From the IMG/VR virus record IMGVR_UViG_3300028840_004913, positions 39,146-103,145 of that record: 64,000 nucleotides of DNA; one strand, written 5' to 3'. Origin of the DNA: a virus. The translations under genes were made by a program, and so were the position numbers. The notes under the pieces were generated by a model, which worked only from the letters and a program-made list of their open reading frames with translations, did no database searches and was not told the origin of the DNA. Below, in pieces: positions 857 to 62,288 of this stretch (its first letter is position 1; each line of letters starts with the position of its first letter).

Positions 857-1147
857 TTAAGCGTCCTCCCAAAAGACCGATATTTTATATTGTTTACCGC
901 ACCGTGGGCACCGTGTATTCACGATCTTATCTACCGAAAAAACGGATACCTCATAAATAGACTCGACATCCACCCGAACACCACAACACGGACCCTGGAA
1001 CAGCCTGAGGATCTTCGTATCGTTAATATGCTGGTCCTTGACTGTTCGCCGGCTGTCGCATTTGCCGGTCATTAGACAATCGTAAGCCTTCATTTCTGTG
1101 TTGATTCCCATTGCATCTAATGGGCGATCCACCAAATATCTATTCAT
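857..1147 (-). CDS. Cys-rich (Zn-finger-like) hypothetical protein
   Basis: GPCC...RCPRCG; homologue at 60193-60492; G-rich RBS before MNRYL. Confidence 0.75.
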   Translation of the reverse strand: MNRYLVDRPLDAMGINTEMKAYDCLMTGKCDSRRTVKDQHINDTKILRLFQGPCCGVRVDVESIYEVSVFSVDKIVNTRCPRCGKQYKISVFWEDA

Positions 1148-1167
1148 TGCTCCCCCTTTCAAATGAA

Positions 1168-1257
1168 CTGGTAGCCCAGGGGATCTTAACCACCATGGCC
1201 GGCCAAAGCCATGGGAGCCTCACCCCCGGGTATTACCAGACCTGCTGCAGTCCAGGT
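1168..1257 (-). ncRNA. Putative structured ncRNA element B (copy 1)
   Basis: ACCTG/CAGGT hairpin, then long stem CTGGTA/TACCAG, CCCGGGGG/CCCCTGGG, CCATGGC/GCCATGG; covaries with 60515-60603. Confidence 0.7.
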
Positions 1258-1260
1258 TTT

Positions 1261-1307
1261 ACCGTTTTGCACTCTAACATTCGTAATGTTATTGTGCAAA
1301 AAATGGT
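1261..1307. repeat. Inverted repeat (hairpin) at the site where copy 2 carries rtcB
   Basis: TTTTGCAC..TAACATT / AATGTTA..GTGCAAAA. Confidence 0.75.
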
Positions 1308-1308
1308 T

Positions 1309-1384
1309 GGGTAGCCAGGTCTGGATCCCTGGCCGCCCCGGGCTGCATTCTCCGATACGGAAGAGCGCAGCCTCTGTCCAGATG
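1309..1384 (-). ncRNA. Putative structured ncRNA element A (copy 1)
   Basis: TCTGGA/TCCAGA, GGCTGC/GCAGCC, GGGCGGCCAGG/CCTGGCTACCC; conserved with 61799-61877. Confidence 0.65.
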
Positions 1385-2281: not shown

Positions 2282-2545
2282 TCAATCACGGAGCCCCCTT
2301 TGCTGCATTGCTGTATTACGGTCCTGGCTCGTTCTGTACGCTTCCATAGCCTGGTCGTATCCTTCCCAACCGTCGACTCCGAAGGTCATAAGGATCAATA
2401 AGAATTTGACATCTGCCTTGAGTGCATCATATTCCTGTTTTGTGATTGTAACGCTCTCATCTGTATCCACATAAACAGAAAGACCTGAATCGGTGCGGTG
2501 GCGTTTTATCGACTCATCCTTTGATTCAATATTCGACTCATCCAT
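2282..2545 (-). CDS. Hypothetical protein
   Basis: C-terminal VTITKxEYxALKxDVKFLL..GVDxWEGY shared with 62854-63117. Confidence 0.7.
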   Translation of the reverse strand: MDESNIESKDESIKRHRTDSGLSVYVDTDESVTITKQEYDALKADVKFLLILMTFGVDGWEGYDQAMEAYRTSQDRNTAMQQRGLRD

Positions 2546-3096
2546 TATCCGACCTCATGGGGAAGCCTGCCCCTGTTTTGCCCATCGATTGATACCAGGA
2601 TCTGCGTGAGATTGTTTATAATCGTGTCGCCTACCGGATCCTTCTTGAACCCCATAATAGTCTCAAGCCTATCGAGTGCGGCACCCTTCGAGTGGAATTT
2701 GAGTGTCCGCTTTGTCACGCCGGCGACGGACGACTCCCTGATCTCAGATATGGCCCGGGCAACATCGTCAGGCAGATCTTGTATCGGCTTTATATTTCCG
2801 TTGTTATCATAAAGATCCTTCGGATTGAGGAATGCAATACAAGCCTCTTCCGATAAGATCCGGTCGAGATCGACATAAAGATTCTGCTCTGCGACGTCCT
2901 GGGCCTTTGTCTCTAACTCGCTAAGCCTCTGTATTACAACAGGATCCTTAAGCCATCGTGAGGCCTGAGCCCAGGCGCTTTCCTTCTTGCAATTCGGAAA
3001 GACCTGCATATAGGCTTTGCCTGCAGAGCTCGGGTCCCTGAAATAATACTCTGCGAATTTATTTCTATTCGCTATGGCTACTGAGGATTTGCTCAT
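2545..3096 (-). CDS. terS: Terminase small subunit
   Basis: N-terminal FAEYY..AGKAY..AWAQASRWLKDPVV; IAF.....LYD.NG.IKPI.DLPDD..RAI; K..ALD.L. Confidence 0.8.
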   Translation of the reverse strand: MSKSSVAIANRNKFAEYYFRDPSSAGKAYMQVFPNCKKESAWAQASRWLKDPVVIQRLSELETKAQDVAEQNLYVDLDRILSEEACIAFLNPKDLYDNNGNIKPIQDLPDDVARAISEIRESSVAGVTKRTLKFHSKGAALDRLETIMGFKKDPVGDTIINNLTQILVSIDGQNRGRLPHEVG

Positions 3097-52623: not shown

Positions 52624-52872
52624 TTAGATTCTACCGGCCTCGTCAAGCTGGCCCATATACTTTTTCTTGGCGCTCTTGCTAACGTATCCGGCACCTTTCT
52701 TTTGGTCGCCAGTATCTCCGGCCTGGCTCTTCATCTTTTTATTCCGACGCCTAACTCTGGATTTCACGTCGCCGCCCATATCCGGCATCTCTGTGGACTT
52801 TTGCCCATCTTTCGCATAATTTCCGGTACTTGTGTCCATCTGGACCTCCTTATAATCTCGCCATCCGTTCAA
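52624..52872 (-). CDS. Hypothetical basic protein
   Basis: GGAGG RBS before MDTST (start probably 52839). Confidence 0.55.
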   Translation of the reverse strand: MNGWRDYKEVQMDTSTGNYAKDGQKSTEMPDMGGDVKSRVRRRNKKMKSQAGDTGDQKKGAGYVSKSAKKKYMGQLDEAGRI

Positions 52873-54931
52873 GAGGCGGCATTAATTTATTTTCTCCACC
52901 GTCCCGTAGAGGCATTGCACCACCACCTCCACCCATAGGCATCCCCATCTGAGCCTGCATCATATTTTGCTGCAGCATCATCTCGAGATCCTTATCTTCT
53001 GGAATGATTTCTTCCTGCATTTTCAGGGCCTTAACATTCTCTCGGAGCACCTTGGCCCTTCCACCGTAACCGATGATAGCCATGTCGACGTCATTATTAG
53101 TTAGAGCGAGGAATTCAGCCCGACGTGCCTGCAGTTGCTCAGCCTGGATCAGATATTCGCTGGCCCTGGCCATGACCTCAATATCACCCCGCGCATCGAT
53201 ATCATCGAATAGCAAGATATGTGTCCACATCGATTTGACAATCGGCTTGATCACATTCTGGTCAATAGCGACAATGGCATCCTTCATGATCTTGGAGGCC
53301 GCAGACATTAACATGGACAACCCGTGCGCGGTCTGACCGGCACCTGAGGCCGCCCCGCCAACACCGGATTCATACGCCGGCACACCTAATTGTTCGCCGG
53401 CCTGGTTAAAGAAATACTGGTAAACCTTCATCAGCATATCCGTCAGCGCATTCGGCTGATAGAAATGTATCGCCTTGTTATTCTTACCCATAGGATCCGA
53501 TTTGGTTTTCCAGATCTTCCAGGGATAGAGCTCTTCGAGGTTGTCGCCTGGATCCATTCGGTCCTTATGTATCTCAACTTGTGGGCCTGAGGCAATCGCC
53601 AGGTTATTAACCATGGCCCGAGCGGTAGCATTGCACACCCGCTGGCAATCTTCCATGTGCTCAGGTGGCGCAACACCCCATATGGAGTCATTCGACTGGT
53701 CAAAGGAAGCCCCATAATAAGGCTTCTCGCCAAGGGGATTATCATTCAGCCTGGCCATGATCACATGCCGGCCGACCATCATGCAGACACAGGCCACAGG
53801 CTCTGCCGGATTATCGATCTCTTTGGGATCCATCCCCCAATCAATAAGCAGGTGGCCAGGGATTTCCCCATGATATTCGAGGGTTTCGATAACTGCCTGG
53901 GGATCCTCTTGCTCATTTGGCCTGAATTCAATATTGGCTCTTTCCTGGTCTGTCCAAAGCCAATCCTGCAGCATGCCACCACGGTACTCTGTGAGGACCT
54001 CGTCAATGGCGTCCGAATCAAAGCCTGGAACACCCTTCATTTTGACAAGGTCATTCTCTCTAAGCCTCTGCCTTTCCAGGGAATATCCATCATTGATATT
54101 TTTGGCACCGGCTGCGAAGTACATATCGAATGGGCTCACACATTTCCATGAACGGTAGTAAACCCAATCGACCTTAGGGGTACGCTTTCCGTCTGGACCA
54201 TCCTCCCATTTAAGGGCTTTCTTTCGACGGATAAAGGGGCCTTTCAAAAAAGCGGTCGGATACGTTGCAAAGTCCTTGATAAACTTGGCAATCTCTCCGT
54301 AGAAGTCACCCTCGTTAAAGCCGTCCTCGATGATATCTGTGATACGCTCGGCTTCCTGGGCGGCCAGGGCTCGGTCTTCACGCTGCAGATCATTCCGCAG
54401 ATCCATCATGCGCTGATCAATCATATCCGGAGTGATCTCTGCCGCTGGCACGGTCTGCAGGATCATAGCCACCTCAGACTGTACTCGCTTTGTGAGACGG
54501 ATCTCCTGCTCAACCGGTAGGTCTGGAACTGGTGAAGGGGAAATACCCCATGGCTTCTCACCCGCTGGCAGCATAACGTCTTTGATCCAGGCCTCGATAG
54601 TCCTGCATTTGACGTTAGTTAGCATCATGAAGATCTGAGAGCCACCAAACTTGCGGATATGCGCCAGGTCATCCGGATCATACTTACCCTTCCGTTGCCG
54701 GATGCATTTTAAAAGGCGCTCTTCGACGAACCATTTGGTATTTTTTGCGGATTCCCAATGCTGCTTGATATGAGAGGCCAGGCCGATTATCTCTGGCCGA
54801 TTCTGCATTTCCTCGGCCTTTTTCCTATCGGACTCCATCTTGTCAAGCTGGTCATTGTTTAAAACCCGCAAGAGGCCATTCCGTTCAGGAATAGCCCCAT
54901 AGGTGGATTGCTGTACCGCTGGTGCAGGCAT
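52850..54931 (-). CDS. Portal protein
   Basis: 693 aa after terL; CQ..CNA.ARAMVNN.AIASGPQV, TA.GLSMLMSAASK; P22-like portal pattern. Confidence 0.9.
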   Translation of the reverse strand: MPAPAVQQSTYGAIPERNGLLRVLNNDQLDKMESDRKKAEEMQNRPEIIGLASHIKQHWESAKNTKWFVEERLLKCIRQRKGKYDPDDLAHIRKFGGSQIFMMLTNVKCRTIEAWIKDVMLPAGEKPWGISPSPVPDLPVEQEIRLTKRVQSEVAMILQTVPAAEITPDMIDQRMMDLRNDLQREDRALAAQEAERITDIIEDGFNEGDFYGEIAKFIKDFATYPTAFLKGPFIRRKKALKWEDGPDGKRTPKVDWVYYRSWKCVSPFDMYFAAGAKNINDGYSLERQRLRENDLVKMKGVPGFDSDAIDEVLTEYRGGMLQDWLWTDQERANIEFRPNEQEDPQAVIETLEYHGEIPGHLLIDWGMDPKEIDNPAEPVACVCMMVGRHVIMARLNDNPLGEKPYYGASFDQSNDSIWGVAPPEHMEDCQRVCNATARAMVNNLAIASGPQVEIHKDRMDPGDNLEELYPWKIWKTKSDPMGKNNKAIHFYQPNALTDMLMKVYQYFFNQAGEQLGVPAYESGVGGAASGAGQTAHGLSMLMSAASKIMKDAIVAIDQNVIKPIVKSMWTHILLFDDIDARGDIEVMARASEYLIQAEQLQARRAEFLALTNNDVDMAIIGYGGRAKVLRENVKALKMQEEIIPEDKDLEMMLQQNMMQAQMGMPMGGGGGAMPLRDGGENKLMPPLERMARL

Positions 54932-54960
54932 ATATGCTCCCTCGACTTAGAGGGCTATCG

Positions 54961-55179
54961 TCATAACCCTCCGATTTCTTTAAATAAAAATAGAGGTGGA
55001 TTATCCTGGGTGACTATCGCTCCAGACTTGCCACACCCACAAGGATCCCATGCACGGCCGCCGAATATCTCGATGGCGTCCAATGCTAATTGAGACGGTG
55101 ACAGGTTATCACCGCAAATTCGACATTTTATTTCATGATCGTCTCCTGCCTCGTATTGAGCCCAACCTTTTTTAATCAT
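54961..55179 (-). CDS. Small Zn-finger hypothetical protein
   Basis: CRIC...CGCG. Confidence 0.45.
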   Translation of the reverse strand: MIKKGWAQYEAGDDHEIKCRICGDNLSPSQLALDAIEIFGGRAWDPCGCGKSGAIVTQDNPPLFLFKEIGGL

Positions 55180-55186
55180 TCAGAAT

Positions 55187-55200
55187 ATACTCCATGTCAA
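55187..55200 (-). promoter_or_regulatory. TTGACA-N5-TAT motif upstream of the portal operon
   Basis: TTGACATGGAGTAT. Confidence 0.45.
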
Positions 55201-55203
55201 GGT

Positions 55204-56832
55204 TTATGTCCATCCCTTAGGGCTTGCCATTTGTTTCTGTCTCTCTACATGCTCCGGCGAGGCTTTCGGTGGCGGCTGCGGGACCGCGCCGGCAATGTCT
55301 CCCTTCAAAGCGAGCTCTTTAAATGCTGAGGCACCATGGCTGGCCCAATCATGCAGGATCTTCTCTTTGAAGCAGCCGAGCTTATCATTCCATTCTTTAC
55401 GCAGGGAATCCAGGCAATCTATCCCCCGCTCACAGCCGGCTTCATCAAAATAACAGATCGGCAGGAATAGCCTGACGGATTCAATCTGCATCGTCTCTGA
55501 TACACGAGGGCCAATATCGAATTCAACGCCAGCTTCCTTACATAGCTGCCAGACGCTCTTATCCAGCGCCCAAACGTGCTGAGCCAAGTCATGAGGGCCT
55601 TGCCATAGCCTTATCCGAGATTTGTGCTCCTTAGCCCATTCTATCGCATAATCACGGTAATGGGGGAAGCCCTCACCAGAGTTTTCGTAATAATGTAGCA
55701 GGTGGACCTCACGGCCGACGTTCTGAGCGAACCAGATCGCTGTTTCATCATGATACCCAATATCCCAATATGTGTCTATCGGCAGGTGCTCGACGACAGG
55801 GACCCTACCTATTCGGCCCTGCTTCCTGGCGGCTCGCATCTGTTTCTGGTAGTAGGCACCCTCCATAGATTTATAAAAGGCCTCTTCCGGAGTCGACGGG
55901 TGCTCTTGAAACATAAACTCACCCTGAGTCGACTCTGTCTCGACATACCATGCCTTTTGCTCTTCTGTCAGGTGGATCCTGTGCTTAACCTCGAGCTCTT
56001 CGAAATAATCCTTCAACCTATCAGGGGTAGCTGTCCCGCTCGGCTCGAGTCGATTGAGATCATTCTCTGGCCACCCGAAAAAGAAAAACTTGTACTGCTT
56101 CTTACCGAGATTAGACCTCATATCCTTTAAGGCTCTGGCGGTCTTGACCATCTCGTAATATTTACCCTCGCGCCCCTCTGCCGTGGATTCGATCGTCACG
56201 ATATTGCCGGCATGGATAGCATTTAGGGTACCGGTGATAACCTCCTGGGCTTTCAAGGGATACTTGGCGCAGATCTTCCCGAGCTCAGAGATATGGATCA
56301 ACTGGTAGGTACCAGACCGGCCAGACGTCGTCACCCTGATGGAGGATCCGTTTTTAAAGGACAGGTGTTTGCTCGAGATCTTGCTGCCACCCATCTGATT
56401 TTTTAATTGTTCCGGAAGGTTATCGTAGGCGAACTTCACCTTCTTTTGGAAAAAGTCCTCGGCATCATCCTTGTTATGGGCGATAATAGCCGCATGCGTA
56501 TTAGAGTTGAACATGCAGATATCCAAATATAACAGACACATAAAGGTGGTGATACCGTGCTGGCGAGATTTAAGGATGATATTGCAGTACCACATCCCAA
56601 GGTATAGTAGCTTTTGGGCGTAGTTCATTTGAAATGGGATCTGGTTACCATCGGCATCTACTATCTGATACAGATTATCTATTCGCCACCGCTGAGATGC
56701 AAATTTTTTATGAAGCTCGATGTATGCATCTATCTCGGTCGGTGGCATGCCTGCCAGTTTAAGCTGCCGTTTTAACTCGGTATAATACTCAGGACTCCTG
56801 ATCTCCGGCAATTTGCTTGTTTCTACAATCAT
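55204..56832 (-). CDS. terL: Terminase large subunit
   Basis: LKSRQHGITT (Walker A-like), IHISE, ESTAEG, WDIG..D.TAIW nuclease motif. Confidence 0.95.
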   Translation of the reverse strand: MIVETSKLPEIRSPEYYTELKRQLKLAGMPPTEIDAYIELHKKFASQRWRIDNLYQIVDADGNQIPFQMNYAQKLLYLGMWYCNIILKSRQHGITTFMCLLYLDICMFNSNTHAAIIAHNKDDAEDFFQKKVKFAYDNLPEQLKNQMGGSKISSKHLSFKNGSSIRVTTSGRSGTYQLIHISELGKICAKYPLKAQEVITGTLNAIHAGNIVTIESTAEGREGKYYEMVKTARALKDMRSNLGKKQYKFFFFGWPENDLNRLEPSGTATPDRLKDYFEELEVKHRIHLTEEQKAWYVETESTQGEFMFQEHPSTPEEAFYKSMEGAYYQKQMRAARKQGRIGRVPVVEHLPIDTYWDIGYHDETAIWFAQNVGREVHLLHYYENSGEGFPHYRDYAIEWAKEHKSRIRLWQGPHDLAQHVWALDKSVWQLCKEAGVEFDIGPRVSETMQIESVRLFLPICYFDEAGCERGIDCLDSLRKEWNDKLGCFKEKILHDWASHGASAFKELALKGDIAGAVPQPPPKASPEHVERQKQMASPKGWT

Positions 56833-59251: not shown

Positions 59252-59413
59252 TGGTGCGAGCAGGTGGCCGGTTTCGCTGGCTATCATAAGGATTTGCAGA
59301 TCCTTCAAGCCTCCACGGTTTCCCCGCTCTTGACACTCGATTGATCTTATCACCTTCTGGATGGACTGCAACCCGATCCAGGGTGACTCGATCGCCCTGT
59401 GCCCTCTAAGGTT
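59252..59413 (-). ncRNA. Putative kissing-loop ncRNA ending in CCA, inside the tRNA array
   Basis: Two long arms with complementary apical loops TTGCAG and CTGCAA; 5' arm conserved at 1-95. Confidence 0.65.
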
Positions 59414-59664: not shown

Positions 59665-59889
59665 TCATTCATCCTCAAAAGGCCAGGCCGTTCCGGATAT
59701 CTGCGTAGGGATTATGGCCTGCTTCCTTCCTGCGTACTCTTCCTCCTCTTCCATTTTGGCCGGTCGCCATGGCTGATTTGAGAATATCGCCTTGCATTTA
59801 AAGCACCTATACCATTGTCCGTCAAGATGATCCCATGGATAAGGGTGCTTGCATTTAGGGATCTTGCCCCCTTTTATCTCCCTAAGCAT
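59665..59889 (-). CDS. Small Zn-ribbon-like hypothetical protein
   Basis: Homologue of 328-546. Confidence 0.7.
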   Translation of the reverse strand: MLREIKGGKIPKCKHPYPWDHLDGQWYRCFKCKAIFSNQPWRPAKMEEEEEYAGRKQAIIPTQISGTAWPFEDE

Positions 59890-60193
59890 CAACCTTGTAT
59901 GGCCACGGGATTTCCGCATGGTCATACCATATGCTTATTTTCAGCTTCTCTTCTGGATCTCGCGCCGGCCGATCATCTTCCTCACACAATCCCTTGTGCA
60001 GAACATAATAGGCCAGGGTTAAAGGGTTAGTATGGAAGTCCTGTTTCGCCAGGCTGTGGTCGACCATATGCTCCGACGCCAGGCTAAGCATCTGTTTTGT
60101 AACGAAAAAAACGCATTTGCCCGTCTCTTTCTTGATAAACAGGATCCGATCACCATCGTCTAAGTATCTGTAATCCTTAGGAACGAAGCCCAT
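59882..60193 (-). CDS. Hypothetical protein
   Basis: Homologue of 539-856. Confidence 0.8.
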   Translation of the reverse strand: MGFVPKDYRYLDDGDRILFIKKETGKCVFFVTKQMLSLASEHMVDHSLAKQDFHTNPLTLAYYVLHKGLCEEDDRPARDPEEKLKISIWYDHAEIPWPYKVDA

Positions 60194-60492
60194 TAGCTGT
60201 CCTCCCAAACGACCGATATATTGTACCGTTTACCGCACCGTGGGCACCGTGTATGCAGGATATTATCCGTCGCATTAACAGACACAATATCCACCCGAAC
60301 CTTGCAACATGGGCCCTGGAACACCCTCAGGATCTGAGTATCATTCCTGTGCTGGTCTTCAGCCGTGCGCTGATGATTACATTTGCCACGCATTAAACAG
60401 TCAAAGGCCGTCATCTCTGCCTCAATACCTCTGACGTCCAAAGGGCGATCACCTAAATATTTTATCGGCTTACCCTGTTCACATTTCTCCAT
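60193..60492 (-). CDS. Cys-rich hypothetical protein
   Basis: Homologue of 857-1147. Confidence 0.75.
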   Translation of the reverse strand: MEKCEQGKPIKYLGDRPLDVRGIEAEMTAFDCLMRGKCNHQRTAEDQHRNDTQILRVFQGPCCKVRVDIVSVNATDNILHTRCPRCGKRYNISVVWEDS

Positions 60493-60514
60493 ATGAACCC
60501 CCTCTCAAATGAAA

Positions 60515-60603
60515 CTGGTAGCCCGAGAGCTCAGCGACCACAGCCGGCCAAAGCTGTGGACCACCTTACCCTCGGGTGTTACCAGACCTGCTGCAGTTCA
60601 GGT
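60515..60603 (-). ncRNA. Putative structured ncRNA element B (copy 2)
   Basis: CCACAGC/GCTGTGG vs CCATGGC/GCCATGG in copy 1; invariant TTTGGCCG loop. Confidence 0.7.
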
Positions 60604-60604
60604 T

Positions 60605-61774
60605 TTATCCTTTAACGACCAGTATCGGCCGAAAATTATCAATAATTCTAATCAGTTTAGACGAACCGCTCAATACATATCCTATGTCCTTATATGCATA
60701 GGCCGATTCATCGAGCAGCTTCTCGACTGGCTGAGAAACCATTATACCATCCATTGACTTTGAATGGTCTGCCATGTCGATTGTTTTTTTGGCCCTGGTG
60801 CGCGACATGGTACGGCCGCATCCGTGAGGCGCTGACTCGAGACACTCTTTATTGCCAAGCCCCTCTGTGATCCAAACACCATCCCGCATATTCGCTGGTA
60901 TGATGCCTATATCCCCCTTTGAAGCCGGCGTAGCGCCTTTACGATGGATAACCCCATCATCGGTAACCGTCGCATGGTTATGGTTCTCATTCACCATATC
61001 CATCATTAGCCTGCGGACCTGGCCAGACTGGAGCCCTAAGGCCTTGAGGGCTTTCTTCATCATGAGCTCTCGGTTGCGAAGGGCAAAGCTGAGAGCCCAA
61101 TTCATATCTGCCAGGTATTGCTGGCCGAGCTCAGACTCAAGAGGTATCGGCCCACCGGACATACGCATATAGAAGTCACCGATATTATATCCAGACTTCC
61201 GTGATCCTGAATGAATGGTAACGCCAACCTCTTCTGTGCGCTGGCTGATACCGTACTCGAGGAAATGATTGCCACCACCGAGAGTACCGACCTGCCAGGC
61301 TGCCTTCATATTGACCGCATCGGCTAAGGCTTTGTATTTACTGGCATTCCTAAACCGCTCGAATCCATTGGATTTAGTCTTTCTTGAGTCGAAACCCACC
61401 GGAATCATTGATAATACTCTCTTCTTGATATCCGTCCTGGTGGTCCCGAGCTCGCCATAGGTTATGCCAGTATTCACATGGCACATACCGCATCCAATGT
61501 CATAACCCACAGCCCCTGGCCAAATATAACCGTCCAATAATGCTACAGATCCTATCGGTAGATCATAGCCGGCATGCACGTCTCGCATGATAGCCAGGCG
61601 CTTAACAATGTACCGATCTGCAGCATATCTGCCTGGATCCTGCCGTGGATACATAAGGGCATTCACGATCTGATCCTTCGCAGGGTCCTCTATATCTTCC
61701 CATGGCAGCGTTAATTCCAGGCGGCCACCTGCAAAGTCGATAGCATCTTCCGTGGTAATCAGTTCAATAGCCAC
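60605..61774 (-). CDS. rtcB: RNA 2',3'-cyclic-phosphate/5'-OH ligase RtcB
   Basis: DVHAG..PIG, VGYDIGCGM, GTLGGGNHFLE, HSGSR, HNH, HRKGA, SAPHGCGR, DES..AYK; GTG start at 61774 after GGGGGAGG. Confidence 0.97.
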   Translation of the reverse strand: MAIELITTEDAIDFAGGRLELTLPWEDIEDPAKDQIVNALMYPRQDPGRYAADRYIVKRLAIMRDVHAGYDLPIGSVALLDGYIWPGAVGYDIGCGMCHVNTGITYGELGTTRTDIKKRVLSMIPVGFDSRKTKSNGFERFRNASKYKALADAVNMKAAWQVGTLGGGNHFLEYGISQRTEEVGVTIHSGSRKSGYNIGDFYMRMSGGPIPLESELGQQYLADMNWALSFALRNRELMMKKALKALGLQSGQVRRLMMDMVNENHNHATVTDDGVIHRKGATPASKGDIGIIPANMRDGVWITEGLGNKECLESAPHGCGRTMSRTRAKKTIDMADHSKSMDGIMVSQPVEKLLDESAYAYKDIGYVLSGSSKLIRIIDNFRPILVVKG

Positions 61775-61798
61775 GCCTCCCCCTCTCGTTAAATGATT

Positions 61799-61877
61799 GG
61801 GTAGCCAGGTCTGGATCCCTGACCGCCCCAGGCTGCCCCCGTCCCTGTGCGACACGGGGTACAACCTTGTCCAGATG
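61799..61877 (-). ncRNA. Putative structured ncRNA element A (copy 2)
   Basis: TCTGGA/TCCAGA, AGGTTGT/GCAGCCT, CCCCGT/ACGGGG, GGGCGGTCAGG/CCTGGCTACCC. Confidence 0.65.
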
Positions 61878-62288
61878 TTATGAGCCGTCCAATACAGGCT
61901 CGAAGCCTATGACGACCGCGACGCTGGCACCGGAAACTTCCTGGCCATAGATCCCGCGCAGGACGTCCATCAGGACGATCGGATTAGCGCAGATCCCGTC
62001 ATGATGCTTTGTAAAGATGAACTTCGGGATATCGGCCAGGCTGCACACCATGACATGGGTAATGACCGCATTCCCGATTTGCTGTTCGTCGTCGTCATTC
62101 ATCGGCAGGACCTTGCCCAATAGCCCAGGCTTTGCCCATCTGTCACCAATACGGACGGTAAAATTGAGCCCCTTCTTGAACTCGAGCCGTTTAAAATCTA
62201 ATGATTTCGGCAGGATAGCATCACCCAAAGGTGCCTGCGCTGCCTCACGATCGTCTACAAACTGGTCCTGAGCATTCTCTACACTCAT
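61878..62288 (-). CDS. ASCH/PUA-like domain protein
   Basis: Homologue of 1385-1804. Confidence 0.6.
   Translation of the reverse strand: MSVENAQDQFVDDREAAQAPLGDAILPKSLDFKRLEFKKGLNFTVRIGDRWAKPGLLGKVLPMNDDDEQQIGNAVITHVMVCSLADIPKFIFTKHHDGICANPIVLMDVLRGIYGQEVSGASVAVVIGFEPVLDGS

Follow-up and report, generated by a model that had tools for sequence, protein, structure and literature searches.

A selected minus-strand RNA structure that founds a new family and, with a sibling, flanks the RNA ligase gene rtcB in an uncultivated phage lineage

Phage tRNA arrays and RtcB ligases are increasingly seen as counter-measures against host nucleases that cut tRNAs; to our knowledge, hardly anything is known about how such tRNA-array/RtcB modules are expressed and processed. 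Intercistronic hairpins processed by RNase III are found in coliphages (e.g., the R sites of T7 and the N leader of lambda), tRNA-like minihelices serve as substrates of RNase P (the 4.5S RNA precursor, phi80 M3 RNA and the T4 stable RNAs encoded in a tRNA cluster), and YrlA in Salmonella shares an operon with rtcBA. The bacterial and phage Y RNA family is defined by adjacency to the Ro60 gene, and YrlA mimics tRNA (PMC4201824).

Here we describe Element B, an RNA structure of a new family and one of a pair flanking a phage rtcB gene. Like the coliphage RNase III hairpins, Element B is a long irregular hairpin between cistrons, lies just before the next ribosome-binding site and has related copies at more than one junction. 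It differs from the T7 and lambda sites in that it shares no sequence similarity with them, carries an extra 5' hairpin (P1) with an invariant loop, occurs at only two junctions and is one for which we infer processing. Like the RNase P minihelices, it combines a hairpin, ACCA and an AU-rich trailer in a transcription unit with a CCA-encoding tRNA array, and its sibling, Element A, has a 7-bp hairpin followed by ACCCA. Unlike those substrates, it has its ACCA paired in the predicted fold, an extra CU after helix P2b, no T-loop and no match to tRNA models. The likeness to Y RNAs (YrlA) is that of a small structured RNA near rtcB with a tRNA-flavoured end. We nevertheless rejected a Y RNA or YrlA, because a search for a TROVE/Ro60 gene found none in the record (with positive controls working), no Rfam Y RNA matched and Element B has no tRNA-like D/T domain.

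Two genomes in tandem and the surroundings of rtcB

The record is an IMG/VR virus contig of 103,145 bp, and the window, the whole stretch of 64,000 nucleotides analysed here, comprises its bases 39146-103145. Bases 1-42,262 of the record are collinear with bases 59,887-103,120 at ~75% identity. Judged from this collinearity, the contig amounts to some 1.7 lengths of a ~60-kb phage genome, with two diverged relatives in tandem, an arrangement that reflects either tandem prophages or a chimeric assembly. Because the two genomes lie in tandem, every "repeat" shared by the two ends of the window is a pair of orthologues. The copies of Element B are thus orthologous sites of two genomes and count as two sequences (i.e., a two-species comparison).

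On the minus strand, a small terminase gene (Pfam Terminase_2) is followed by small ORFs, an ASCH-like gene, Element A, rtcB (in the second genome only), Element B, ORF1, ORF2/ORF3, a tRNA array, a probable large-terminase ORF that has no family match and an SU10-type portal gene. The main features, in window positions, are:

2545-3096 to about 52850-56832: RNA module (ASCH-like gene to tRNA array), flanked by the small terminase gene on one side and by the probable large-terminase ORF with the portal gene on the other
1385-1804 and 61878-62288, minus strand: ASCH-like protein, 139 and 136 amino acids, upstream of Element A (ESM Atlas features 0.95)
60605-61774, minus strand: rtcB (RNA 3'-phosphate ligase), copy 2 only (Pfam RtcB, E 4.7e-71; PHROG tRNA-splicing ligase, E 2.6e-88)
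1261-1307, minus strand: 47-nt hairpin, at the place of rtcB in copy 1
1168-1257, minus strand: Element B copy 1 (fold, pair counts and a covariance-model match of 108 bits, E 2e-19)
60515-60603, minus strand: Element B copy 2, the orthologous site of the second genome (model match of 106.5 bits)
1148-1167, minus strand: conserved ORF1 leader copy 1, UUCAUUUGAA and then the ribosome-binding site AGGGGGAG, with the AUG at 1147
60493-60514, minus strand: conserved ORF1 leader copy 2, UUUCAUUUGAGAGGGGG and then the AUG at 60492
857-1147, minus strand: ORF1 copy 1, 96 amino acids, zinc-ribbon-like (weak zinc-ribbon matches only)
60193-60492, minus strand: ORF1 copy 2, 99 amino acids, 67% identical to copy 1
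328-856 and 59665-60208, minus strand: ORF2/ORF3 region

The rtcB gene probably starts at a GTG at 61774, behind GAGAGGGGGAGG, and is bracketed by Element A on its 5' side and Element B on its 3' side. Element B fits its intergenic space closely: copy 2 begins one base past the rtcB stop codon, and the element stops short of the ORF1 ribosome-binding site by 11 nt and of the ORF1 AUG by 20-22 nt. The 47-nt hairpin that takes the place of rtcB in the first genome was considered as a relic of the gene and dropped, because no similarity between the two was detectable (968 of 1000 shuffles scored as well). The difference between the genomes is thus left as either an insertion of rtcB in one or its loss from the other.

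The neighbours of Element B deal with RNA, namely RtcB and the ASCH-like protein, and an array of 12 tRNAs follows (second genome, ARAGORN), 12/12 of which encode CCA. Pfam gave no match for the 139/136-aa ASCH-like protein; its structure resembles clusters carrying ASCH in the ESM Atlas at TM 0.62-0.66. A search of 5.8 billion protein clusters revealed no relatives of ORF1 beyond the window's own two proteins, nor did ORF1 yield a confident model. A search for a conserved sigma-70-like promoter or an intrinsic terminator flanking Element B found none, consistent with read-through transcription. Element B is probably transcribed from the minus strand within a long polycistronic message, a transcript that must anyway be cut at a dozen tRNAs.

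Several features of the region are recorded as observations. ORF2 (105 and 108 aa) and ORF3 (111 and 86 aa) overlap in different frames, by 125 and 44 nt, in both genomes, and could be two genes or a single gene with a frameshift. The rtcB genes of unrelated phages (L025 and L030; 39-47% identical) sit mid-array among 11-12 tRNA genes, so that the link between rtcB and tRNA arrays recurs. L087, a portal-gene relative, has tRNAs at the same place but none of the elements. A tRNA-like sequence at L087:3240-3345 (+), uncalled by ARAGORN, has GUA in its anticodon loop, an extended variable arm and a T-arm of GGUUCGAAUCC, and it terminates in CCA.

A selected RNA structure on the minus strand

Folding of the minus strand revealed a structure common to both copies of Element B, in which a small hairpin, P1, is directly adjoined on its 3' side by a long and irregular one, P2. 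P1 is a 5-bp stem, ACCUG/CAGGU, with an 8-nt loop, GACUGCAG or AACUGCAG (RACUGCAG). P2 is a ~28-bp irregular hairpin (26-28 pairs) with internal loops; from its base upward it has the basal helix CUGGUA/UACCAG, then 8-9 bp with CCCGRGGG, a middle helix of 4-5 bp with many G-U pairs and, closing the loop UUUGGCCG, an apical helix of 8 bp. The helices of copy 1 lie at:

1257-1240, minus strand: P1
1239-1234 with 1173-1168, minus strand: P2a
1230-1223 with 1182-1175, minus strand: P2b
1219-1188, minus strand: P2c and P2d, with the apical loop at 1206-1201

The predicted free energies of the minus strand are -46.5 kcal/mol for copy 1 and -49.9 kcal/mol for copy 2 (z -2.85 and -4.82), and the plus strand folds more poorly (-39.2 and -35.7 kcal/mol; z -2.5 and -2.1). 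Each copy contains 5-6 G-U pairs, which become A-C mismatches when read on the plus strand. The G-U pairs, the better fold and the direction of all neighbouring genes together place the RNA on the minus strand. Plus-strand ORFs run across Element B, and their frame is not kept between the two copies.

Comparison of the two copies shows that the pairing has been maintained through change. In the two-sequence alignment, 31/31 pairs form in both copies and none is broken. Both partners have changed in four pairs: U-A became C-G and G-C became A-U in the apical helix, U-G became G-C in the middle helix, and G-C became A-U in the lower helix. Four further pairs show single-sided swaps between G-U and Watson-Crick pairing. 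Controls with slid partners were only 28-52% paired. We also simulated chance by placing 12 random substitutions in paired columns and scoring whether all pairs survived: this happened in 0/200,000 trials with uniform substitutions (i.e., <5e-6), at a frequency of 7e-4 when 75% of changes were forced to be transitions and at 5e-3 with transitions only.

We then compared divergence with a neutral reference, the four-fold degenerate sites of five flanking genes, which are 46% identical between the genomes. Element B differs in 20/91 columns, compared with 54% at 200 such sites (P about 4e-10), and its first 31 columns hold just 2 differences (P about 2e-8). P1, the basal helix and both loops are invariant across the two copies, except for one R in the P1 loop. 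Since P1 and the basal helix never vary, the covariation supports the inner helices alone. The retention of all pairs together with the low divergence relative to four-fold sites demonstrates that Element B is a genuine, strongly selected RNA structure of the minus strand, on the evidence of two sequences.

The initial annotation of this DNA had proposed a functional RNA of ~90 nt at 1168-1257 and 60515-60603, and we find the sequence and coordinates as it described them. The ACCUG/CAGGU hairpin with its RACUGCAG loop and the long irregular stem appear in both folds; the two compensatory pairs that it reported in the apical helix are recovered in our pair count, as is a middle-helix swap of a G-U for a Watson-Crick pair, in the company of one-sided swaps and with 0 broken pairs. 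Its choice of the minus strand agrees with the 5-6 G-U pairs per copy and with the coding strand. A functional RNA, in the sense of a minus-strand RNA constrained in structure, is thus backed by the fold, the pair counts, the simulation and the four-fold-site comparison. It had also suggested a homologue search with a covariance model, and the model that we built from the two copies (R1) found only these two.

R1 matched nothing beyond the two copies in the whole record or in 64 phage rtcB loci, and nothing in L001 (the only viral relative of the ASCH-like gene), in the portal-gene relatives L087 and L088 or in the others searched. Exact and gapped DNA patterns gave 0 matches in viral contigs, or chance ones in unrelated, mostly GC-rich sequence, and 5 matches each in metagenome and genome contigs, none otherwise like Element B and several of which look coding. 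GenBank phages gave no match by DNA or protein. No Rfam family reached its gathering threshold, and relaxing the cut-off to E 10 added just a trivial 22-nt hairpin (L13 leader, E = 3). Within the collections searched, from which close relatives may be missing, Element B stands as an orphan motif of two sequences from a single uncultivated phage lineage, which limits its reach.

Kinship with Element A and likeness to tRNA

Element A, on the other side of rtcB, and the leaders that follow the two elements are located at:

1309-1384, minus strand: Element A copy 1, directly after the ASCH-like stop codon; it ends in a 7-bp hairpin, then ACCCA and CAUUU
61799-61877, minus strand: Element A copy 2; the 3' hairpin, GGCUACCCA, CAUUU and a ribosome-binding site make up the rtcB leader
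61766-61835 and 1142-1203, minus strand: paralogous rtcB and ORF1 leaders (GGCUACC, CAUUU, GAGAGGGGG)

The motif GGCTACC, 2-5 nt, CATTT, 0-3 nt, GARAGGGGG has 3 occurrences in the 103-kb record, before rtcB and before ORF1 in both genomes, and is found nowhere else in it. Furthermore, a local alignment matched two segments, one made up of Element A's 3' hairpin and the rtcB leader, the other of Element B's 3' strand and the ORF1 leader, at a score that was reached by 0/2000 shuffles for one pairing of copies and by 29/2000 for the other. By this alignment, the segment that includes Element B duplicates the one that includes Element A. Both elements also open with a similar YCUGGAC motif right behind a UAA stop; apart from this CUGGAC, Element A has no clear counterpart of P1. 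Element A holds CCAGACCUG, the exact complement of CAGGUCUGG in Element B, invariant in both genomes, where CAGGUCUGG comprises the 3' strand of P1 and the basal helix. This complementarity is borderline (about 25-29/1000 shuffles do as well) and could represent long-range pairing across rtcB or a by-product of the shared CCUGG/CCAGG stems.

The ribosome-binding core of ORF1 is mostly unpaired (P 0.74 in copy 1 and 0.55 in copy 2). We searched for pairing that would sequester this core and found none, and the isolated 3' half of Element B also leaves it unpaired. A riboswitch or a repressor hairpin that hides the ribosome-binding site was rejected on these pairing probabilities and because no riboswitch family matched, and an anti-Shine-Dalgarno switch was dropped because there was no alternative pairing to sequester the core. 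An intrinsic (Rho-independent) terminator was likewise rejected, as the minus strand has no such site and the hairpin is followed by UUCAUUUGA and the ribosome-binding site.

The 3' side of Element B had been likened in the initial annotation to the 3' end of a tRNA mimic at 107-234. The letters of GGGCUACCA are indeed present; the likeness, however, is not above chance (332/2000 shuffles equal it), and we dropped a significant similarity between Element B and this 128-nt mimic. In both the minimum-energy fold and the ensemble, the ACCAG of GGGCUACCA pairs with CUGGU, with CU lying between P2b and ACCA. The CCA is thus predicted to lie in the 6-bp basal helix CUGGUA/UACCAG at the base of P2 and not in a free tail, so that a tRNA-like 3' end would need this helix to open. 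The AU-rich trailer after GGCUACCA resembles the trailers of the array tRNAs, and those of tRNA-Ile and tRNA-Pro contain a similar CAUUU. ARAGORN, which found the 12 tRNAs, omits Element B, the Rfam tRNA model gave no match to it even at E up to 10, and its apical loop is not a T-loop. A tRNA or tRNA-like structure was rejected on the lack of a T-loop and of a tRNA model match.

A candidate processing element and its alternatives

We tentatively interpret Element B as a cis-acting intercistronic element for processing or stability, a reading to which we assign a probability of roughly 40%. A cis-acting role, rather than that of a free RNA that may dimerise, as the initial annotation had inferred, is suggested by the way Element B abuts the rtcB stop codon and by the paralogy of its 3' end and downstream leader with the 3' end of Element A and the rtcB leader, neither of which that annotation had mentioned. 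It is further favoured by the fit from stop codon to ribosome-binding site, the free ribosome-binding site, the ~28-bp helix, GGCUACCA with its AU-rich trailer and the presence of a sibling upstream of rtcB; the RNA-related neighbours and the tRNA array also agree with it. Element B would then act as a folded punctuation mark at which host RNases cut the polycistronic RNA and so part the upstream RNA from the message for ORF1. RNase III could act on the ~28-bp irregular helix P2, whose 26-28 pairs are adequate for this enzyme (about two turns of mostly double-stranded RNA). Alternatively, RNase E could cut the AU-rich trailer just past GGCUACCA, and RNase P or exonucleases could trim the ends. 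By either route the upstream RNA (rtcB or ASCH) would keep a stable hairpin at its 3' end, and the leader left to ORF1 would be short and unstructured, its ribosome-binding site free. Transcription of Element B, its cleavage, the enzyme and an effect on stability or translation are all parts that we infer. With its two related, strongly selected structures, which enclose rtcB exactly and span the gaps between stop codon and ribosome-binding site, the locus is a compact case of RNA-level module organisation.

Some alternatives place Element B in the same transcript and give it another role. The near invariance of P1, the basal helix and the loops fits a specific partner, whether protein or RNA, no worse than it fits a generic RNase site, and this keeps trans-acting RNA and protein-operator readings alive. 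Element B might be released, in the same way as the adjacent tRNAs and the array's other non-tRNA members that end in CCA, as a stable trans-acting small RNA ending at GGGCUACCA, whose invariant loops (CUGCAG and UUUGGCCG) contact a partner RNA or protein. The end in GGCUACCA with a trailer like those of the array tRNAs would suit such an RNA, as would loops, a P1 and a 5' 31 nt far more conserved than neutral sites, hexamer duplex energies of about -6 to -8 kcal/mol and the related loops UUGCAG and CUGCAA that a 160-nt array RNA carries at conserved spacing in both genomes. We consider this release unlikely, however, because in both copies a predicted 6-bp helix that pairs ACCAG with CUGGU forms the very base of P2, there is no T-loop, the tRNA model gives no match even at E up to 10 and the likeness to the tRNA mimic does not exceed chance. 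An operator is rather less probable still: the ORF1 product, RtcB or the ASCH-like protein would bind the invariant P1/basal region and control translation of ORF1, with the site in Element A controlling rtcB likewise. Sequence-specific recognition typically leaves near-invariant segments such as P1, the basal helix and the loops, Element B lies just upstream of a ribosome-binding site, one 3' motif and leader precedes both rtcB and ORF1, and ORF1 is a small zinc-ribbon-like protein; against this, the ribosome-binding site is predicted to be free and outside the structure, and of P1, which is conserved most strongly, Element A shows no clear equivalent other than CUGGAC. As ORF1 has neither relatives nor a confident model, RNA binding by it would be a guess. 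It is also rather doubtful that Elements A and B are "punctuation" minihelices that imitate the tRNA acceptor (hairpin, GGCUACC(C)A, AU-rich trailer), at which host tRNA-processing enzymes would cut the rtcB message out of the late transcript and release CCA-ended small RNAs as by-products or effectors. If it were true, this would be mitochondria-style punctuation in a DNA phage, and the use of tRNA-acceptor mimics as processing signals would extend tRNA punctuation to phage messages. A still bolder form of this reading adds a P1 loop that is cut by a host RNase and resealed by the phage RtcB, as considered below. It is highly improbable that no RNA element is involved and that the conservation is due to chance or to a signal in the DNA, for instance for packaging or recombination: in favour, Element B has the small terminase gene on one side and the probable large-terminase ORF on the other, a region that can hold packaging signals, and n = 2 sequences, but 31/31 pairs are preserved with 4 double changes, the G-U pairs make the fold strand-specific and conservation is far above neutral.

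The loop of P1 invites two further comparisons. The dimerisation hairpin of HIV-1 has, like P1, a 6-nt palindrome in its loop, with unpaired purines on both sides of the palindrome. P1 differs in its 8-nt loop without a 3' flanking purine and in its setting, the message of a DNA phage. Homodimerisation of Element B by kissing of CUGCAG loops, in the retroviral manner, would draw on the invariance of this palindrome in the 8-nt loop of both copies, on a possible six-pair CUGCAG duplex of about -7.7 kcal/mol and on a second palindrome, GGCC, in the apical loop. We nonetheless judge it very unlikely. CTGCAG occurs 71 times in the 103-kb record compared with 22.7 expected (three times over-represented), so a palindromic PstI-type loop is unremarkable in this genome, and by simple counting about 5% of random 8-nt loops hold some 6-nt palindrome. 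The palindrome also lies flush against the 3' side of the P1 stem, with two 5' purines and no unpaired base 3' of it, no biological reason for dimerisation of an intercistronic phage RNA is apparent and an invariant loop gives no covariation to read. The other comparison is with IRE1 and XBP1, which are eukaryotic and in which RtcB is the XBP1 ligase. The IRE1/XBP1 stem-loop and P1 share CUGCAG(C) in a hairpin loop, and P1 adjoins an rtcB gene; P1 differs in loop size and register, is a single site and comes with no IRE1-like nuclease that we could find. By analogy, the CUGCAGC loop of P1 would be opened by an RNase that the host uses in stress or defence and closed again by the phage RtcB. 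In favour of such a cleavage-religation site, CUGCAG in a stem-loop is the IRE1-alpha consensus (PMC2952871) and copy 2 of Element B directly adjoins rtcB. However, the loop has 8 nt and not 7 (CNGCNGN type), no second such hairpin lies across or near rtcB, the record has no KEN/RNase 2-5A domain, copy 1 keeps Element B without rtcB and, as for dimerisation, CTGCAG is common in this genome. Given the 8-nt loop, the missing partner hairpin and KEN nuclease and the rtcB-less copy, we regard the likeness as a coincidence, and a functional relationship as very improbable.

Related loops also occur within the tRNA array:

59252-59413 and about -30 to 95: ~160-nt RNA of the tRNA array

This RNA carries loops UUGCAG and CUGCAA at a spacing of 71-72 nt in both genomes, and these together with the CUGCAG of Element B form a set of YUGCAR loops within one transcription unit. 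In the record as a whole, CAGCTG (a PvuII site) occurs 0 times compared with about 23 expected, which looks like avoidance of a single restriction site, and GGATCC, CCATGG and CTGCAG are 2.5-3 times over-represented.
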